A stretch of 64,000 nt of DNA, taken from an uncultured Lachnospiraceae bacterium. GTDB lineage: Bacteria > Bacillota > Clostridia > Oscillospirales > CAG-272. Location: NCBI GenBank assembly GCA_964403505.1, contig CAYOFP010000005.1, positions 7,655-71,654 of the forward strand, read 5' to 3'. The position numbers and the translations under genes are program-made. Each line of letters begins with the position of its first letter. Positions within the stretch are counted from its first letter, which is position 1. The notes beneath the pieces are model-generated. The model searched no databases, was not told the origin of the DNA, and saw nothing but the letters and a program-made list of their open reading frames with translations. Positions 12,466 through 57,895 of this stretch are shown here, in pieces.

Positions 12466-13329
12466 TCAAGTTTCGAACGGCGGAATGTACGCCGCCTTTG
12501 CCGACGTCCGCTCTTGCGTATAACCGTCTATATGATACCCATTAAGGATACTCAGCACCTTGTTTTGCTCAAATGTCGTTATCCTGCGCCCGAGTTCTTC
12601 CGGGGCGCCCGGCATGGGTGTATATTGGCTCATGAGAGATATCATGATCTGCTCGCCCGAATAGCGCTCGCAAAGCCACTTGACGATCTCTATACTGTCT
12701 TTATAACATCCCGGCAGTATCAGATGCCGCACGATGACCCCACGCCGCATGATGCCGTCTGAAATTTCTATCTTTCCGCACTGGCGCACCATCTCGGCAA
12801 GGGCGACGCCCGCCCTCTCAAAATAGTCGGGAGCGTGGGAATATTTTCCCGATAATTCGCTGCTCATATATTTGATATCCGGCAGATATATGTCTATAAG
12901 TCCGTCGAGCGCACGGATGGTCTCTGCCTTCTCGTATCCGCCGCTGTTCCATACAACGGGTATTTTCAGCCTCGGCTTTGCCCGCTCGAGGGCGGCGATC
13001 ACGCCGTGCGTATACTGCGTCGCCGTGACAAGATTGATATTGTGCACACCCTCATCCTGTAAGCGCAAAAATATATCGGAAAGTTCCGACACGCTCACGC
13101 TCCGCCCGACGCCGCCGTGGCTGATCTGTGCGTTCTGACAGAACACGCAATGCAGAGGACATCCCGTGAAAAACACTGCGCCCGAACCCCGCTCACCTGA
13201 TATGCAGGGTTCCTCCCACATGTGCGGTGCGGCACGTGCGATACGGATATGATGATCTGCACCGCAATAGCCGACTGTATTCTCTCTGTTTGCCCCGCAT
13301 TCTCTCGGGCAAAGATTACAAATATTCAT
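12466..13329 (-). CDS. radical SAM protein (PflX-like activating-enzyme family)
   Basis: ORF 12466..13401. The likely start is MNICNLCPRECGANR at 13329. A CX3CX2C cluster is present (CPLHCVFCQN), along with an N-terminal Cys-rich motif typical of the PflX/YjjW group. Confidence 0.8.
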   Translation of the reverse strand: MNICNLCPRECGANRENTVGYCGADHHIRIARAAPHMWEEPCISGERGSGAVFFTGCPLHCVFCQNAQISHGGVGRSVSVSELSDIFLRLQDEGVHNINLVTATQYTHGVIAALERAKPRLKIPVVWNSGGYEKAETIRALDGLIDIYLPDIKYMSSELSGKYSHAPDYFERAGVALAEMVRQCGKIEISDGIMRRGVIVRHLILPGCYKDSIEIVKWLCERYSGEQIMISLMSQYTPMPGAPEELGRRITTFEQNKVLSILNGYHIDGYTQERTSAKAAYIPPFET

Positions 13330-13433
13330 GTGATAATTATACCACCATTTACAAAATGAAACAACAGAATATTTTTTTGTAAAAAAACTTGACAATTTCA
13401 TTTGAGTGTGATATTATTTATAAGCGCATTTAT

Positions 13434-13507
13434 GCGGATGTAGTTCAATGGTAGAATCCCAGCCTTCCAAGCTGGTCGTGCGGGTTCGATTCCCGTCATC
13501 CGCTCCA
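13434..13507 (+). tRNA. tRNA-Gly (anticodon TCC)
   Basis: It folds by hand into a cloverleaf. The acceptor is GCGGATG/CATCCGC, the anticodon loop is CTTCCAA, the T-loop is TTCGATT, and CCA is encoded. Confidence 0.9.
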
Positions 13508-13510
13508 AGC

Positions 13511-13536
13511 TTATTGCCGGTATATACCGGCAATAA
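13511..13536. repeat. perfect 26-bp palindrome in the tRNA-Gly/tRNA-Arg spacer
   Basis: TTATTGCCGGTAT|ATACCGGCAATAA has 13-nt arms with no mismatches. Confidence 0.95.
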
Positions 13537-13540
13537 TTAT

Positions 13541-13617
13541 CTACCCTTAGCTCAGCAGGATAGAGCAACTGCCTTCTAAGCAGTAGGTCGAGGGTTCGAA
13601 TCCCCCAGGGTAGGCCA
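13541..13617 (+). tRNA. tRNA-Arg (anticodon TCT)
   Basis: The acceptor is CTACCCT/AGGGTAG, the D-arm is GCTC..GAGC, the anticodon loop is CTTCTAA, and the T-loop is TTCGAAT. There is one A-C mismatch in the T stem. CCA is encoded. Confidence 0.85.
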
Positions 13618-13622
13618 AATAC

Positions 13623-13700
13623 GGTGGGTGTAGCTAAGTTGGTCATAGCGCCAGGTTGTGGCCCTGGAGGCCGTGGGTTCGAATCCCATCACTCACCCCA
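13623..13700 (+). tRNA. tRNA-His (anticodon GTG) with encoded G-1
   Basis: An extra 5' G can pair with discriminator C. The acceptor is GTGGGTG/CACTCAC, the anticodon loop is TTGTGGC, the T-loop is TTCGAAT, and CCA is encoded. Confidence 0.9.
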
Positions 13701-13733
13701 GAAAAAAACCGATGCTTTAGCATCGGTTTTTTC
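13701..13733 (+). terminator. rho-independent terminator of the tRNA cluster
   Basis: The hairpin AACCGATGC-TTTA-GCATCGGTT is followed by TTTTT. Confidence 0.85.
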
Positions 13734-13737
13734 AACT

Positions 13738-13901
13738 AAATCCGTCCTGCGGACGGGTGAAATCCATCTATGATGGATGAAATCACTTCGTGATGAAATC
13801 CGACTTCGTCGGGATAGAGACGGATTTAATTTCATCTGAGGCGCAGCCGAAGATTTCATCCGAACAGAGTGAGGATTTCATCGCACTTTGTGCGATTTCA
13901 T
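13738..13901 (+). repeat. tRNA-proximal hairpin/linker array, copy A
   Basis: Four short hairpins built on ATCC..GGAT bases are separated by GAA(A) (13741-13815). Four segments spaced by ATTTCAT follow (13823-13901). It is paralogous to 42392-42562 in inverted orientation. Confidence 0.9.
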
Positions 13902-13916
13902 TAGGTCTGTTTTGGG

Positions 13917-13995
13917 TTTACGAGAGCTCAAATCCATCAGCCGAAATCGTAAGAACATCTCTTTCGCAACCTCTTTACACACTCAAACACCAATT
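13917..13995 (+). repeat. X module copy 1 (tRNA 3'-end-like repeat: ..ACGAGAGCTCAAATCCATCAGCCGAAATCG..AAACACCAAT)
   Basis: It is roughly 70% identical by eye to 15247-15310. Related copies lie at 42353-42391 and 42134-42166 on the minus strand. Confidence 0.8.
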
Positions 13996-14031
13996 TTGAT
14001 ACAGTGTGTCATGATTGGTGTTTGTTTTTTT
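13984..14031 (+). terminator. rho-independent terminator
   Basis: The hairpin AAACACCAAT-(19 nt)-ATTGGTGTTT is followed by GTTTTTTT. Confidence 0.7.
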
Positions 14032-14091
14032 CAGACAAGTTTCATTCATGTAAAATAAACAAATCGGCAAACCGGAATTCAGGAGGCGAAT

Positions 14092-14523
14092 ATGCACAAG
14101 ATTTTTGGAATAAAAGAAAACAAAAAATATGTTGACAGATACGGCGCATATATCATCCCGATAAAAAACGGAAAAGTAGGAGTTATCGAAACATCCAAAG
14201 GTTATTTTTTTATCGGCGGAGGTTCTGAGCATGATGAAACAGACGAACAATGTATCGTAAGAGAGTGTTTGGAGGAGATCGGTTATCGTGTTATAGTAAA
14301 GCAAAAAATATGTTCGGCCGAGACTTTTTGCCTCCATCCTGAAATAGGGTATTTTCATCCTATCCAAACATACTATATAGGAGACTTATTGGATAATGTA
14401 AGACAACCGTGCGAAGAAGGTCACAATTTTGTTTGGATTGAATATGAAAGAATAAAAGGTAAAATGCACCTTGATATGCAAAATTGGGCAATAGAACAAG
14501 CGACTTTTCCGGAGAAGAGATAA
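14092..14523 (+). CDS. NUDIX hydrolase
   Basis: The 143-aa product has a Nudix box (GGGSEHDETDEQCIVRECLEEIGY, i.e. GX5EX7REUXEEXGU). An RBS AGGAGG lies 7 nt upstream. The segment is AT-rich compared with its flanks. Confidence 0.85.
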   Translation: MHKIFGIKENKKYVDRYGAYIIPIKNGKVGVIETSKGYFFIGGGSEHDETDEQCIVRECLEEIGYRVIVKQKICSAETFCLHPEIGYFHPIQTYYIGDLLDNVRQPCEEGHNFVWIEYERIKGKMHLDMQNWAIEQATFPEKR

Positions 14524-14605
14524 GTAGCTTTGCTTCGCAAAGCGATTGATTAAACTAAAAATCCATGATATAATTGATGTAATCTTTATTTTTCGGAGAG
14601 AGAAT

Positions 14606-15223
14606 ATGGATAAACCTTCTTTTAAGGACAATATTAAAAAATATTATAATCAAGAAGCGGAATTAAGAGAGAGTAAGTCTGTAAAGTCCGAATGGAAGAT
14701 TAAAGTCAGACAAAATTTTTACGACATTTTAAAGCAAGAAAACAAAAAAACTCTGCTTGAATTAGGTGCAGGCGCCGGATATGACAGCGTGTTCTTTATG
14801 GATAACGGATTATCTGTCATAGCGGTTGACATATCAAATGAAATGGTAATCAAATGTAGAGAAAAAGGAATTGAAGCATACGAACTTGACTTTTATGATT
14901 TATCAGCATTAAATGTTAAATTCGATTGTATTTATGCCATAAACTCTCTATTGCATGTTCCGAAAAATGATTTGCACAAAGTTCTTCATGAAATAGATTT
15001 ATCATTGAATCAAAATGGGTTGTTCTATTTAGGACTGTATGGCGGAGATGATACCGAAACCGAATTTGTGAAAAATGATATTTCCGATGCTCCGAGATTT
15101 TTCGCATTTCATTCCGATAATTACTTAAAAAATGTGTTGAAAAATCAGTTTAATATTATTAGTTTCGAAACGCTTGATCTCGGAACAGATATTTTTCACT
15201 CAATTATTTTAAGGAAGAAATAA
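14606..15223 (+). CDS. class I SAM-dependent methyltransferase
   Basis: ORF 14546..15223. The likely start is MDKPSFKD at 14606, with GGAGAGAG upstream. Motif I is present (LLELGAGAGYD). The segment is AT-rich. Confidence 0.8.
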   Translation: MDKPSFKDNIKKYYNQEAELRESKSVKSEWKIKVRQNFYDILKQENKKTLLELGAGAGYDSVFFMDNGLSVIAVDISNEMVIKCREKGIEAYELDFYDLSALNVKFDCIYAINSLLHVPKNDLHKVLHEIDLSLNQNGLFYLGLYGGDDTETEFVKNDISDAPRFFAFHSDNYLKNVLKNQFNIISFETLDLGTDIFHSIILRKK

Positions 15224-15246
15224 TCGACTATTGATCAAAAATAGTC

Positions 15247-15310
15247 ACAAGAGTTCAAATCCCTTATTCGAAATCGCAAAAAATCTTTTTCGTTACCTAT
15301 AAACACCAAT
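15247..15310 (+). repeat. X module copy 2
   Basis: CACAAGAGTTCAAATCCCTTATTCGAAATCGCAAAAAATCTTTTTCGTTACCTATAAACACCAAT aligns with 13917-13995. Confidence 0.8.
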
Positions 15311-15341
15311 ATCCCCCGGAGACACTCTCCGGGGGATATCT
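15311..15341 (+). terminator. GC-rich hairpin (terminator-like, no clear U-tract)
   Basis: ATATCCCCCGGAG-ACACT-CTCCGGGGGATAT. Confidence 0.45.
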
Positions 15342-15435: not shown

Positions 15436-15810
15436 ATGGCACTGAAAGAATCAGGCGAAATGTATCTCGAGACGATACATATCTTATCTAAAAAATCATC
15501 CTGTGTGCGCTCTGTCGATGTCGGCGAGTATATGGGATTTTCAAAACCGAGCGTCAGCCGTGCCGTCTCCCTGCTCAAAGCAGGCGGATACCTGACAATG
15601 GAAAAGGACGGCGCTCTTTTGCTCACCGAACAGGGAAAGGAAATCGCCGAAAAAATATACGAGCGTCATACCATCCTCACCGAAATGCTCATCAGGCTCG
15701 GCGTCGACGAGCAGACCGCCGCCGAGGACGCATGCAAAATAGAGCACGATATCAGCGATAAAACATTCGATGCGATAAAACGCCATATCGAAAAATTCAA
15801 TGACCGATAA
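15436..15810 (+). CDS. DtxR/MntR-family metal-dependent transcriptional regulator
   Basis: ORF 15379..15810. The likely start is MALKESGEMYLETI at 15436, with GGAGGAAAAAAC upstream. The N-terminal wHTH and dimerisation helix (ERHTILTEMLIRLGVDE) are typical of MntR/DtxR. Confidence 0.8.
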   Translation: MALKESGEMYLETIHILSKKSSCVRSVDVGEYMGFSKPSVSRAVSLLKAGGYLTMEKDGALLLTEQGKEIAEKIYERHTILTEMLIRLGVDEQTAAEDACKIEHDISDKTFDAIKRHIEKFNDR

Positions 15811-36445: not shown

Positions 36446-36521
36446 ATAAAGAAAAATATCAACCCATTTTAGGATAAAATCTCAAAAAAAGGAAGACATT
36501 TTTTGTATTTTTCAGACAAAC

Positions 36522-37064
36522 TCATTGATTCACTGCGGATATCTCCTCTTCCTCTGCAGGCCGCCATGCGATACCGAAATTCACATCCTTAAAAAGTGCG
36601 GCCAGTCCTGTAATCTGTTTCAGTCTCAATATTTCATCCTTATCCATGCCTAAGTGTTTGGAGATCCATGCATCGGAACGCCCAAGCTCATGCAGCTCCT
36701 TTACGATGTTACTCATCAGATCGACATCGTGAGAGCCTCTTGCCCTGTTGTGACGGATCGTACTTGCCATTCTGTGGTCGATCGGTTTATCTATCACCGA
36801 TACCGGAAGCAAACCGCCTTCACGCTCACGGATATCGGGATAATCCAACATAACGCGATAGCGGTGAAATCCGTCGACAATAATGTACTCATCACTGCTC
36901 TCCACATAATAACATACAATCGGCATAGTATAGCCGTCCTCTTTTATGCTGTCGTACAGAAGCTTCATTTCAGGAGGTGCGACCGCATTCGGGTTATATG
37001 TATTCGGCACGATCTTCTCGATCGGAACTGCCTTTATGTTATATACCGGACTTTTTTGTGCCAT
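36522..37064 (-). CDS. ParB-like nuclease domain protein (IbrB-like)
   Basis: ORF 36522..37073. The ATG at 37064 has AGGTGA upstream. ParB/Srx-fold motifs are present (NPN…, VDGFHRYRV, STIRHNRARGSH). It lies immediately downstream of the PAPS-reductase-like gene. Confidence 0.8.
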   Translation of the reverse strand: MAQKSPVYNIKAVPIEKIVPNTYNPNAVAPPEMKLLYDSIKEDGYTMPIVCYYVESSDEYIIVDGFHRYRVMLDYPDIREREGGLLPVSVIDKPIDHRMASTIRHNRARGSHDVDLMSNIVKELHELGRSDAWISKHLGMDKDEILRLKQITGLAALFKDVNFGIAWRPAEEEEISAVNQ

Positions 37065-37065
37065 G

Positions 37066-38382
37066 TCAATCACCTACTTTGCTGTATTTATCTTTTAAAA
37101 TATCAATACGTTTTTGCTGTTCTCTTGTTAATCCGAAGCCCATGAAACGACAGATGTGATCATTTTTAAGAATGCAATAACACATCCTCTTCCAGCTTGG
37201 GATATCCTTTGTTGATTTTATATCGTCTGTATGATCGGGAATCTTACTTAAGAATACAATTCGGGAGTTTTTCATAATTGTATAATTTGATACGCCGTTT
37301 CGCTTAATTTTATATCCCTTATCGATCAGTTCCTGTATCACATGTTCTTCGAGACCTCCGCCTGTCTTATGCCAGAACTCCATAGATGCCTTAAACTTTT
37401 TGATATAATTATTACGGAGACGGGCAGGCAGGGTGCTTAAAAGAAATTTTGTATACGATTCCCATGTATGACCTTCCGGCAATGTGATATTGCGGTATCC
37501 CATGGCTTTCGTCTTGCCGTAGATCGCACCGAAATTAGCTCCTCTTACACGACCGACAAGTTTAGCCCATATTTCAGGATCGAGTACACGGTAAAGGTTA
37601 AGGCTGTCTTTTGCATAATCGTTAAATGGAGAAGCCACACGCATCTGATCCGGCTTCAATCCTGCCATATAATACAGATCATATATCCGGTTGTATTCAT
37701 AATTAAATGTGTAAATGGCATGCCAGACATCACTTTTTGCCCAATCGTACAGAGGAGATGCCGCCCACACATCCTTAAACTGTTTACTGATCCAACACTG
37801 ATCTTTATAACCGTATTTTTTATTGAGAATTGCGCTGTAACGCTGAAGGGACTCGTCTGCACGTATGCCCAAAAGACATACTGTTTTCTTCTCTCCGTGA
37901 GAAAGTCTGTACCACCGTCCAAACTGTTTCGCTAAATCTTCCTGATGCATACGGTAATGATATGTCGTGATAGGATTATTCTGAAGATTAATCACATAGG
38001 GATATTCCGGCATCGGACGAACCCATGCAGATTCCTTTGTATCATCCCATGGATACCAATACATCTGATAACTGCTGAGCGCCGTTCTCGTTGCCATAGG
38101 AAGGCAGACCCAGTACGGTTCAACCTCATCTTTGATTCGCTCGAAGGTTCGCTCTACATACTGAGTAGTCACACTGTATTGAGCTTCAAAATCCTGATGA
38201 AATACACCGATCCTTTTGTCGGGATAATATTTGCGTTGAAAATCAAGCGTAAGGTTCAGCAGAAGTCCGCTATCCTTGCCGCCGGAAAAAGAGACAAAAA
38301 TATTGTCAAACTCTTCAAATATAAATCTCAGCCTCTCCTGAAGTGCTTCATATACATTCTGATTTGTGTATTCTCTTTTCAT
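37066..38382 (-). CDS. PAPS-reductase-fold ATP pyrophosphatase with DUF3440-like C-terminal domain (IbrA-like)
   Basis: The 438-aa product has a PP-loop (VSFSGGKDSG) and a C-terminal region (…WKRMCYCILKNDHICRFMGFGLT…) that I recognise from IbrA-type proteins. Confidence 0.8.
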   Translation of the reverse strand: MKREYTNQNVYEALQERLRFIFEEFDNIFVSFSGGKDSGLLLNLTLDFQRKYYPDKRIGVFHQDFEAQYSVTTQYVERTFERIKDEVEPYWVCLPMATRTALSSYQMYWYPWDDTKESAWVRPMPEYPYVINLQNNPITTYHYRMHQEDLAKQFGRWYRLSHGEKKTVCLLGIRADESLQRYSAILNKKYGYKDQCWISKQFKDVWAASPLYDWAKSDVWHAIYTFNYEYNRIYDLYYMAGLKPDQMRVASPFNDYAKDSLNLYRVLDPEIWAKLVGRVRGANFGAIYGKTKAMGYRNITLPEGHTWESYTKFLLSTLPARLRNNYIKKFKASMEFWHKTGGGLEEHVIQELIDKGYKIKRNGVSNYTIMKNSRIVFLSKIPDHTDDIKSTKDIPSWKRMCYCILKNDHICRFMGFGLTREQQKRIDILKDKYSKVGD

Positions 38383-38437
38383 TGTGTTATCATTCCATAT
38401 GCCAAGCTTCGACAGATTTCGCTATTGAATCAGGTAC

Positions 38438-38466
38438 ATTTTACCATAATTTTACTCCGGAGTAAA
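38438..38466 (-). promoter_or_regulatory. promoter of the IbrA/B-like operon overlapped by a perfect 16-bp palindrome
   Basis: On the minus strand the sequence reads TTTACT-17-TAAAAT with TG at -15/-14. TTTACTCCGGAGTAAA (38451-38466) covers the -35 and part of the spacer. Confidence 0.55.
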
Positions 38467-38518
38467 TATTTTCCTGTGAACTTTTCGTTTACTCTGCGAC
38501 ACGAGCGACACAAAAAAT

Positions 38519-45224: not shown

Positions 45225-45730
45225 AAAAACACTCGCTCAGAGATCTATTGATATTCGCAATGCTCGGCTCGCTGATGTTTGCTGCCACGTGCGCCATGAA
45301 GGCATTGCCGAATATCCATCTCCTCGCACTTTTCATCGTGACTTTTACACGGGTATACCGTGCAAAGGCGCTCATCCCCATTTACGTATATGTAATATTA
45401 GAGGGAATCTATCAGGGCTTCTCGCCGTGGTGGGTACCGTATCTCTATATCTGGGCGTTTTTATGGGCGATAACAATGCTTTTGCCGAAGAAAATACCGA
45501 AATATATCGAGCCTGTCGCATATTGTGCCGTGGGCGGAATATCGGGTTTTACCTTCGGTGCGTTATGGGCGCCCTGGCAGGCGCTGATGTTCGGACTGTC
45601 GGTAAAATCCATGATAGCATGGATCATTACCGGATTTCCTTTTGATATCACACACGGAATATCAAATGTGTGTATGTGCACATTATGCGTTCCGCTGATA
45701 CGGATACTCCGCAGACTTGAGCGCAGGTAA
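45221..45730 (+). CDS. small polytopic membrane protein, possible vitamin-transporter S component
   Basis: The 169-aa product has about 5 TM helices. An ATGA overlap joins it to the upstream gene, and it sits under the B12 riboswitch. The family was not recognised with certainty. Confidence 0.5.
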   Translation: MKKHSLRDLLIFAMLGSLMFAATCAMKALPNIHLLALFIVTFTRVYRAKALIPIYVYVILEGIYQGFSPWWVPYLYIWAFLWAITMLLPKKIPKYIEPVAYCAVGGISGFTFGALWAPWQALMFGLSVKSMIAWIITGFPFDITHGISNVCMCTLCVPLIRILRRLERR

Positions 45731-56840: not shown

Positions 56841-56859
56841 GCACAACAAATCCATACAG

Positions 56860-56895
56860 CGAAACGCCGATATATCTTTTCCGTCCCGAATGGAC
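56860..56895 (+). repeat. direct repeat, left copy (brackets phd-doc)
   Basis: CGAAACGCCGATATATCTTTTCCGTCCCGAATGGAC compares with 57787-57823, CGAAACGCCAATATATCTTTTCCGCCCTGAATAGAAC. Confidence 0.85.
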
Positions 56896-57091
56896 AAAAC
56901 AAATAGTTGAGTAGTCAATAAAATAACCGTCTTGTACATTGTACGAGAGGGTTATTTTATCGTTATATGGTAAAACGGTTCGCAAGTTTTCACCGTATCA
57001 AAAGAAAAATTTTCAACAATTTTTCAATATAGGTTGAATTTATCCTAAATATCGCATATAATATAATTGAATATAAAATGGAGGTCACATT

Positions 57092-57334
57092 ATGACAGTA
57101 AATACTGACAACTTGGTTTCTATAACGGAAGCGAATCAAAATTTTTCTCGTGTTGCAAGAATGGTTGATGAAAGCGGCTCTGTCATTATTTTAAAAAATA
57201 ATGTTCCGCGTTATCTTCTTGTTGAATTTAACGCAGCAGAACAGGAACAGATAGCAAAAGAAGATGATGTCCGAGAGATTTCAAAGAGAATCATTGCAAA
57301 GAACAAAGCTGCTTATGAGGTTCTTGCAAAATGA
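57092..57334 (+). CDS. phd: Phd/YefM-family antitoxin
   Basis: The 80-aa product has the typical N-terminus (VSITEANQNFSRVARMVDESGSVIILKNNVPRYLLV). GGAGG lies upstream and an ATGA overlap joins it to doc. Confidence 0.85.
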   Translation: MTVNTDNLVSITEANQNFSRVARMVDESGSVIILKNNVPRYLLVEFNAAEQEQIAKEDDVREISKRIIAKNKAAYEVLAK

Positions 57335-57708
57335 TAAGACTTACCAAGGAGCTTATCATGCTTCTTCATGATGATTTGATTCGTGAAACAGGCGGAGCAC
57401 ATGGAGTTCGTGATGAAGGTTTACTTGAATCTGCAATCAATGCACCATTTGGCGGATACGGTGAGATTGAGCAGTATCCATCAATTCAACAGAAAGGTGC
57501 AAGATTATGTTTTGGACTTGTAAAGAATCATGCCTTTATCGATGGTAACAAGAGAATCGGCGTCCATGCTATGCTTGTATTTCTTGAGTTAAACGGTATT
57601 GTATTAGAATACACGCAGAAAGAATTGTCTGATATCATTTTGTCCGTTGCTTCTGACAAAGCTTCATTCAAAGATTTATTGAAATGGGTAACCGAACACC
57701 AGCTATAA
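57331..57708 (+). CDS. doc: Doc (death-on-curing) Fic-fold toxin kinase
   Basis: The Doc motif HAFIDGNKRIG matches HxFx(D/N)(A/G)NKR. Confidence 0.88.
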   Translation: MIRLTKELIMLLHDDLIRETGGAHGVRDEGLLESAINAPFGGYGEIEQYPSIQQKGARLCFGLVKNHAFIDGNKRIGVHAMLVFLELNGIVLEYTQKELSDIILSVASDKASFKDLLKWVTEHQL

Positions 57709-57786
57709 TAGAGTCCCCCGTAATTATAAAAAAACAGCCGTATTTTCAGTATAATACGACTGTTTTTGCTTTATAAATCTATATAT

Positions 57787-57823
57787 CGAAACGCCAATAT
57801 ATCTTTTCCGCCCTGAATAGAAC
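57787..57823 (+). repeat. direct repeat, right copy (brackets phd-doc)
   Basis: See 56860-56895. The first 24 nt have a single mismatch. Confidence 0.85.
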
Positions 57824-57895
57824 CCGACGGTGCTTTTTTGTTGCAAAAACGGCGGAAATATAGTATAATAATCGAAATGAAACGAGGTGAAGAAA

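Follow-up and report, generated by a model that had tools for sequence, protein, structure and literature searches.

What are the two repeated sequence modules that bracket a pair of small genes directly behind a tRNA gene of an uncultured gut bacterium? The locus lies in a window of 64,000 nucleotides (nt), the whole stretch of DNA analysed here, from an uncultured Lachnospiraceae bacterium (GTDB lineage Bacteria; Bacillota; Clostridia; Oscillospirales; CAG-272; assembly GCA_964403505.1, contig CAYOFP010000005.1, positions 7,655 to 71,654). Behind the tRNA-His gene come a hairpin array, a first copy of the module (X1), a NUDIX hydrolase gene, a methyltransferase gene and a second copy (X2). 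An earlier note on this DNA took the two copies for decayed duplicates of the tRNA-His 3' end, and offered as its fallback that they could be cassette-boundary recombination sites of an unknown system. Our results contradict the first reading and support the second. The module, which we call X, is probably the conserved right end, about 68 nt long and terminating in ACA, of a family of integrative elements that stack behind tRNA genes in gut Clostridia.

X at the 3' ends of exchanged units

The two copies in the window are direct repeats, as the earlier note had seen, with 75% identity over the aligned modules (MAFFT) and 75.4% over 61 nt by blastn (E = 3e-4). A repeat search gave 13920-13955 / 15247-15282 (78% over 36 nt) as the top direct repeat of the region, and a 27-nt degenerate consensus matched the window twice, at X1 and X2, with 0 matches expected from 100 shuffles. 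Each copy is followed by a hairpin, 85% complementary and ending in a T-run after X1, and with perfect 14-nt arms after X2. The cassette between them does hold a NUDIX gene and a gene for a class I S-adenosylmethionine (SAM)-dependent methyltransferase, and the comparison of base composition that the note had asked for gave a guanine-plus-cytosine (GC) content of 0.31-0.36 between X1 and X2 against about 0.50 in the flanks. A third X was looked for between the two genes and found no support.

X is a sequence family present in more than 100 species. Our first strict pattern gave zero matches in viral or genome collections, the genome collection being without the window's own genome. A search pattern derived from six copies was then scanned over a collection with one genome per species and matched at least 119 loci, against about 9 matches expected by chance under a uniform model (our own arithmetic). 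About 108 of the matched loci listed are metagenome-assembled genomes (MAGs) of gut or rumen Clostridia, from the Oscillospiraceae, Acutalibacteraceae, Ruminococcaceae, 'Eubacteriales' and Christensenellaceae, and about 11 are evident chance matches in other phyla. The true matches have the block TATAGCCCnTAGACA in common, which was not imposed by the search pattern, and usually run on into a hairpin and a T-run. A profile built from them detects 139 copies in the fetched DNA, with the consensus GCRAGRGTTCAAATyc-(about 20 variable nt)-AAAATATCTTTTTTATAGCCCaTAGACA; in the alignment the terminal CA is at least 90% conserved and the neighbouring positions vary. No copy was found in the phage and plasmid collections INPHARED and PLSDB, and IMG/VR gave one true match. 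Our literature search for X, or for an arrangement of X-ended units behind tRNAs, found no description, and the family is apparently undescribed. At least two of the genomes with X are labelled as strains and not as MAGs, L065 (Thomasclavelia cocleata DSM 1551) and L105 (Acutalibacteraceae bacterium SVS042; the L numbers are our own labels), and the system is therefore open to experimental testing.

Other identities for X were tried and rejected. As a structured RNA it fails, since single folds have nothing in common and RNAalifold returns not a single consensus pair for 105 copies of X, and no Rfam family matches it. As a promoter or coding sequence it was rejected by eye, its spacing being unlike that of sigma-70 promoters and its variable part showing 1-nt insertions and deletions.

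The position of X is that of a 3' end. The open reading frame (ORF) before X has the orientation of X in 70 cases and the opposite one in 9, with a median gap of 48 nt from stop codon to X, and the downstream gene takes either orientation. Where the fetched locus contains any tRNA (75 copies), a tRNA lies upstream on the same strand in 68, at a distance whose mode is near 210 nt (25 of the 68 at 120-260 nt); 13 tRNA species are involved, as well as transfer-messenger RNA (tmRNA). Co-oriented arrays of X were found in L053, L113 and L104. The array of L053 runs two tRNA-Ser genes, X, GrpB, X, GNAT, X, an ORF of 220 amino acids, X, that of L113 has three X copies, and a GrpB cassette (86% nucleotide identity) occurs in both with different neighbours. 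The genes found upstream of X code for type I restriction S subunits, GNATs, barstar, methyltransferases, NUDIX and GrpB proteins and serine recombinases, with fructose-bisphosphatase (FBPase) and transaldolase genes also among them; clustering of the neighbouring ORFs revealed no enzyme linked to X throughout. At some loci tandem X copies follow one another at intervals of 200-260 nt and enclose no ORF (L104/L147 9190-9650, L110 40-310, L122 and L036), and these are stacked cargo-less units with differing inner modules.

The limits of the units were read from an all-against-all comparison, in which the common blocks consist of an upstream gene plus X and end inside or directly after X in both partners. 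A unit of 869 nt, 98.7% identical in two species (L087 and L115), contains a hairpin, a promoter region, an ORF of 208 amino acids (aa), by reading of its sequence a putative GNAT, and X. Its left edge falls exactly after the ...CACCA of tRNA-Lys in L087 and of tmRNA in L115, and at its right edge unrelated terminator-type hairpins follow directly after ATAGACA. The left boundaries of other pairs are the CCA ends of different tRNAs, and the sequence after the CCA of tRNA-Ser in L053 is the one that follows an X-ACA in L033. Likewise, the NUDIX unit that starts after X1 in the window starts 6 nt past the CCA of tRNA-Leu in L007, the homology beginning at the hairpin 3' of X1; the NUDIX copy of L007 is 87% identical, its cassette is without the methyltransferase gene, and the X that comes after it is the best match of X2 (86.7% over 45 nt). 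From these junctions the unit is hairpin, promoter, gene or genes, and X ending in ACA, and the CCA end of a tRNA and the ACA end of an X are interchangeable as its left neighbour. The units have been mobile between contexts. The dinucleotide CA ends both tRNA or tmRNA (CCA) and X (ACA), and the position of strand exchange is not readable from sequence alone.

Large serine recombinase genes and the proposed element

Genes for large serine recombinases are linked to X. They occur in 9 of the approximately 108 X loci, and in 7 of the 9 the gene ends 2-129 nt before a co-oriented X. In L146 the module lies 2 nt past the recombinase gene and is followed, after its ACA, by a terminator, and the order in L147 is tRNA-Arg CCA, cargo, recombinase gene, X. 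A database search with one X-linked recombinase gene returned a large gut family. An identical recombinase, P0336, was found on 10 contigs from different samples, and the same X comes after the gene in nine of them. P0336 plus X is followed by at least five unrelated flanks, the divergence setting in right after ...TTGACA, and two contigs stop exactly at the ACA; each right flank opens with an A-run and a hairpin, and two run on into Gut-1-type hairpin arrays (Gut-1 is an RNA motif, described below). Therefore X travels with the recombinase element and not with the target, which places X on recombinase-bearing elements and makes the cassette of our window a recombinase-less relative. The recombinase gene stands at the element end in the relatives (7/9 loci, L146, L149-L158), whereas the window cassette has none. 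In L150 the genes that adjoin the X-ACA end are also present at the left side of the same element, which hints at a circular or tandem joint.

Some of these elements show further features. In L138-L146 and L149-L158 genes for a PemK-type toxin and a SHOCT-domain protein stand before three consecutive genes of serine-recombinase type (about 520, 285-300 and 545 aa). In L147 (850-985), just inside the left end of the recombinase element behind tRNA-Arg, a repeat of about 22 nt (CTCCGTGTAGCGAAT...) occurs six times, and its copies could be protein-binding iterons.

We propose that a full element would consist of an A-run, hairpin and T-run of terminator type, cargo, one or more large serine recombinase genes, and X. 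It would insert between the last A of the CCA of a tRNA or tmRNA and the terminator behind it, and also between the ACA of a resident X and the hairpin 3' of that X, so that units would stack head to tail in one orientation. X and the left hairpin would together form the joint of the element, and the target would be the boundary between (C/A)CA and a terminator. We infer that the recombinase carries out the insertion, with the shared CA as a 2-bp crossover, and that cassettes without a recombinase were moved in trans. Many copies are of this kind, with one or two small genes, and others hold a Gut-1 hairpin array alone; such units, including the NUDIX/methyltransferase cassette of the window, may have been moved in trans or may be fossils. 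The window would then read as tRNA-His, an 'empty' Gut-1 unit ending in X1, the NUDIX and methyltransferase unit ending in X2, a displaced terminator and a gene for a DtxR-type repressor, the GC-rich hairpin after X2 being presumably the original terminator-type flank, displaced from the tRNA end, by analogy with the loci at which such flanks begin directly behind the ACA.

Several points weigh against this proposal. Almost all the comparative data are metagenome assemblies. Some homology blocks stop at the T-run inside X (profile positions 53-56) and not after the ACA, which is consistent with secondary recombination or deletion between T-runs. P0352, a related conjugative element, has only the left arm of X after its recombinase gene. 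A distance of about 50 nt separates the conserved 5' block of X (GCRAGRGTTCAAAT) from the junction, more than in the usual half-site of a serine integrase, and attL or attR is not normally used again by serine integrases, so that stacking after a resident X needs a relaxed, transposon-like specificity. A tblastn search with two large serine recombinases gave no match in the 64-kb window, and action in trans has to be assumed there. Finally, we saw neither a circular form nor an empty site of the window's own locus, the close relatives, found through the flanking radical-SAM gene (73-85% identity), being only on short contigs. Exact-protein searches with the repressor and the NUDIX protein of the window matched only one and the same short contig, and NUDIX homologues at 67% identity stand in unrelated contexts without X. 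The closest radical-SAM relative (85% identity; L002/L003, compared with window positions 12466-13700) has a protein-coding gene instead of the tRNA cluster, and the neighbourhood is therefore unconserved even at this distance.

Other explanations and known systems

It is possible, although on balance we doubt it, that the units of gut Oscillospirales and their relatives amount to an integron-like accretion of cassettes achieved by other means. Large serine recombinases that act in trans and are multi-targeting would move promoter-bearing mini-cassettes to a target exactly between tRNA CCA and terminator, and Gut-1 units would be a cargo-less platform or satellite. The terminal ACA of X would recreate the insertion site, so that arrays would grow behind most tRNA genes.

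Could X instead belong to the host, as a cis-element at gene 3' ends before terminators, for example an unstructured protein-binding motif in RNA or DNA? The unit boundaries would in that case have arisen by homologous recombination with no dedicated recombinase, tRNAs, X and terminators serving as portable homology. X indeed lies between a co-oriented gene and a terminator, keeps invariant positions across many species without RNA structure, also follows genes of housekeeping type (those for FBPase and transaldolase) and is absent from INPHARED and PLSDB; some breakpoints fall inside it at the T-run, and the terminator hairpins behind tRNAs likewise make up a family. However, homologous recombination cannot have placed the 869-nt unit exactly after the CCA of both tRNA-Lys and tmRNA, since these two have no homology on the left side. 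Moreover, in about 12 independent comparisons the homology breaks off no more than a few nt from CCA or ACA, with no spread of end points through the anchors, and the identical element of recombinase and X has at least five unrelated right flanks. We consider this explanation unlikely.

An integron in the proper sense, with X as an attC analogue recombined by an unlinked tyrosine recombinase of integron type, is much less probable. Like attC, X is placed at the 3' end of co-oriented small cassettes in arrays, these cassettes mostly have a single gene, the same cassette appears in different arrays, and the cargo (GNAT, NUDIX, toxin-antitoxin and methyltransferase genes) is typical of integrons. 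In contrast to attC, X is conserved in sequence and forms no palindrome or hairpin by the RNAalifold result given above; there is no IntI or attI, the cassettes hold their own promoter-like sites and terminators, and no tyrosine recombinase stood out among the recurrent ORF clusters adjacent to X, the Pfam run having covered only the ORFs upstream of X.

We give slightly less weight still to an RNA-mediated route, in which a reverse transcriptase would copy transcripts by switching templates at CCA and ACA 3' ends, as in the Mauriceville retroplasmid, and the copies would enter behind tRNAs. The junctions do coincide with an RNA landmark, the mature 3' end of tRNA or tmRNA, and conservation is confined to the 3' end of the unit, as in retroelements with recognised 3' tails. 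Against it, the units hold their own promoter and a terminator hairpin at the 5' end, which are not expected on a single transcript, and the recurrent neighbours of X are serine recombinase genes, with no recurrent reverse transcriptase among the neighbouring ORF clusters.

In the reading of the earlier note X1 and X2 are the attL and attR of serial integration into the tRNA-His gene, for which a tyrosine integrase would be responsible. Its observation of a likeness to the T-arm was real. X contains a T-loop-like GGTTCAAATCC, the next-best window matches of a profile of the window copies are the T-arms of tRNA-Ser, tRNA-Arg and tRNA-His (E = 0.6-1.4 each), the bracketed DNA is low in GC, and Rfam gives a weak tRNA match at X2 (15202-15268; 16.9 bits against a threshold of 29, E = 5.4) and none at X1. 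The likeness is however generic. X1 and X2 agree with tRNA-His at 13-14 of 28 positions, the mean to any tRNA being 12.8-13.6, and over the family X matches the last 28 nt of its own tRNA at 12.47 positions against 12.49 for unrelated tRNAs (p = 0.79). Pairing of the supposed T-stem is no higher than in shuffled sequences (60.8% of cells against 61.6%) and RNAalifold gives no consensus pair, so that GGTTCAAATCC is a conserved linear motif. X is found in more than 100 species, next to tmRNA and 13 kinds of tRNA; X1 and X2 have about 40 nt in common beyond any tRNA-like part; and the left edges of shared units fall at the CCA of intact tRNA and tmRNA genes or past it, not inside the gene. A decayed tRNA-His duplicate is contradicted by all this and we give it almost no credence, although the note's general idea of foreign DNA stacking beside a tRNA gene was right.

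How does the element that we propose, with X as its right end, compare with known systems? In elements of Clostridia with large serine recombinases, the 2-bp direct repeat that flanks the element is also its target (PMC3158075), and for multi-targeting large serine recombinases one cluster has many target sites (10.1101/2021.11.05.467528). As in Tn4451/Tn4453 (TnpX) and Tn6104, the recombinase gene lies at the element end and adjoins the joint, and inverted terminal repeats and long target duplications are lacking; a common crossover dinucleotide at both junctions would be a further likeness. The present units differ from these elements in their target, which is the CCA of a tRNA or tmRNA, or a resident X, against a terminator hairpin, in a conserved end module of 68 nt that is found across more than 100 species, and in being mostly recombinase-less mini-cassettes or Gut-1-only units in arrays. 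The putative dinucleotide is CA here, against GA for TnpX.

In the staphylococcal cassette chromosome mec (SCCmec), Ccr serine recombinases act in a site-specific insertion at the 3' end of rlmH, tandem elements are split by short direct repeats, and pseudo-elements without a recombinase are presumed to have been moved in trans, a view that we share for the X units. Both systems combine site-specific insertion at the 3' end of a conserved gene, tandem stacking and direct repeats between units. They differ in that here many tRNA genes are used and not one protein gene, the units are much smaller (0.3-1.5 kb), and the boundary repeat is borne by the element (X) and is not a copy of the end of the target gene.

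In tycheposons (10.1101/2020.12.28.424599), as in classical tRNA-linked genomic islands, islands beside tRNA genes grow by successive insertions that push older ones outward, and degenerate remnants accumulate. Accretion beside a tRNA and degenerate remnants are common to these tRNA-linked islands and to our loci. Those elements enter the tRNA gene, are flanked by partial tRNA copies and mostly use tyrosine recombinases, whereas at our loci the tRNA gene stays intact and the repeats between units do not reproduce it. In being assembled from terminator, Gut-1 and X modules the units recall BOX elements; they are unlike these and miniature inverted-repeat transposable elements in that their two ends differ (hairpin on the left, X on the right) and nothing beyond CA is duplicated.

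Serine-recombinase elements with non-autonomous satellites, and accretion beside tRNAs as in tycheposons, are thus known already, and what appear to be new are the exact post-CCA target, the conserved 68-nt end, the arrays of mini-cassettes and the link with Gut-1. If our proposal is true, these units would be a common and unnoticed route by which small accessory genes (NUDIX, GNAT, methyltransferase, toxin-antitoxin and restriction-specificity genes) are exchanged among uncultured gut Clostridia. The recombinases would target a universally present and precisely defined boundary, the end of a tRNA gene, and could help to engineer these organisms, and with a conserved marker of 68 nt such cassettes would be easily found in metagenomes.

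Gut-1 and other features of the window

Gut-1 (Rfam RF01706) is known from metagenomes of the human gut (PMC2864571), where it was described solely as an orphan candidate for a non-coding RNA. It occurs in the window twice (13733-13903 and 42395-42566), both times after a tRNA terminator, with an inverted half-copy and then X. With covariance-model scores of 64 and 70.6 bits against a gathering threshold of 50, the hairpin arrays between tRNA terminator and X belong to the family, and what sets them apart is that they always lie 36-40 nt behind a tRNA gene and are followed by an inverted half and X. Gut-1 is therefore part of a repeated, probably mobile unit; it is the content of the 'empty' unit between the tRNA and the first X, and the orphan motif of 2010 would thereby gain a genomic context. 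Within the motif AAATCCGTC at the 5' side base-pairs with GACGGATTT in the centre, and the two covary from one genome to another; the linker has a form specific to the genome, being GTGAAATC, GTATATCATC, GTGAAGTT or GTGATATC. Table 1 gives the coordinates of these and the other features.

Table 1. Features of the 64-kb window related to X, in window coordinates
Feature	Position	Strand	Evidence
tRNA-His(gtg); last gene of a Gly-Arg-His tRNA cluster, anchor behind whose CCA end the units are stacked	13624..13700	+	ARAGORN; Rfam tRNA 68 bits
Terminator-type hairpin with A-run and T-run, putative left end of unit 1 ('empty' unit)	13703..13732	+	14-nt perfect inverted repeat
Gut-1 RNA motif, forward half, three hairpins joined by GTGAAATC	13733..13804	+	Rfam RF01706, 64 bits
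Inverted Gut-1-like half, hairpins and then GATTTCAT on the + strand	13824..13903	-	RF01706, 30 bits, E = 0.003
X1, putative right-end module of unit 1; aligned terminal ACA ~13977-13979	13915..13982	+	Family profile E = 2.6e-8; alignment
Hairpin and T-run, putative left end of unit 2 (NUDIX/methyltransferase cassette)	13984..14024	+	Inverted repeat
NUDIX hydrolase gene (cargo)	14092..14523	+	PF00293, E = 5e-8
Hairpin 'H' 3' of the NUDIX gene	14512..14552	+	88% over 42 nt with 42241-42200 (-), tRNA-Ser locus
Class I SAM-dependent methyltransferase gene (cargo)	14606..15223	+	Methyltransf_25 (E = 5e-13), Methyltransf_11, Methyltransf_23
X2, putative right-end module of unit 2; terminal ACA ~15303-15305	15243..15306	+	Family profile E = 4e-10; alignment
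GC-rich hairpin	15309..15339	+	Inverted repeat
DtxR-type repressor gene, 3' of the hairpin 15309-15339	15436-15810		Pfam
NUDIX cassette remnant, tRNA-Ser locus	42113..42281	-	Profile and blastn matches
Second empty unit, behind tRNA-Ser(tga) (42600-42688)	42332..42598	-	Rfam, alignment, blastn 77.6% over 303 nt
Parts of the second empty unit: terminator, Gut-1, inverted Gut-1 half, X3	42567-42598 (terminator), 42492-42566 (Gut-1), 42332-42382 (X3)	-	
Third bracketed cassette, not tRNA-adjacent	56841..57830	+	Profile match E = 1.2e-4; sequences read directly

The tRNA-Ser locus repeats the order of the tRNA-His locus, tRNA, terminator hairpin, Gut-1, inverted Gut-1 half and X. Its Gut-1 copy is the one that scores 70.6 bits, its X3 matches the family profile with E = 2.6e-9, its inverted half is near-identical to that of the tRNA-His locus, and X1 falls within the 303-nt repeat that the two loci have in common. 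The hairpin 13703-13732 is of a module class also found 3' of tRNA CCA ends in other genomes. Beyond X3 come relics of the NUDIX cassette, namely the final ~25 nt of the NUDIX ORF (~42258-42281), hairpin H (42200-42241) and X4 (42113-42166), a partial X of which the left arm only is present. In the third bracketed cassette, degenerate X-like modules without the 5' block (56841-56900 and 57776-57830) flank a low-GC toxin-antitoxin pair of Phd/Doc-like type (57092-57708).

Beyond the units of the tRNA-Ser locus the window has a low-GC stretch (36500-42100, 0.35-0.45) that seems to be an accessory island; judged by eye, its genes are one with a Fic domain and an N-terminal helix-turn-helix (HTH) (41086-41985, - strand), small HTH genes, and genes resembling those for phosphoadenosine phosphosulfate (PAPS) reductase and ParB (36522-38382, - strand). 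A cobalamin riboswitch (RF00174, 40.3 bits) is found at 44576-44704, upstream of 44754-45730.

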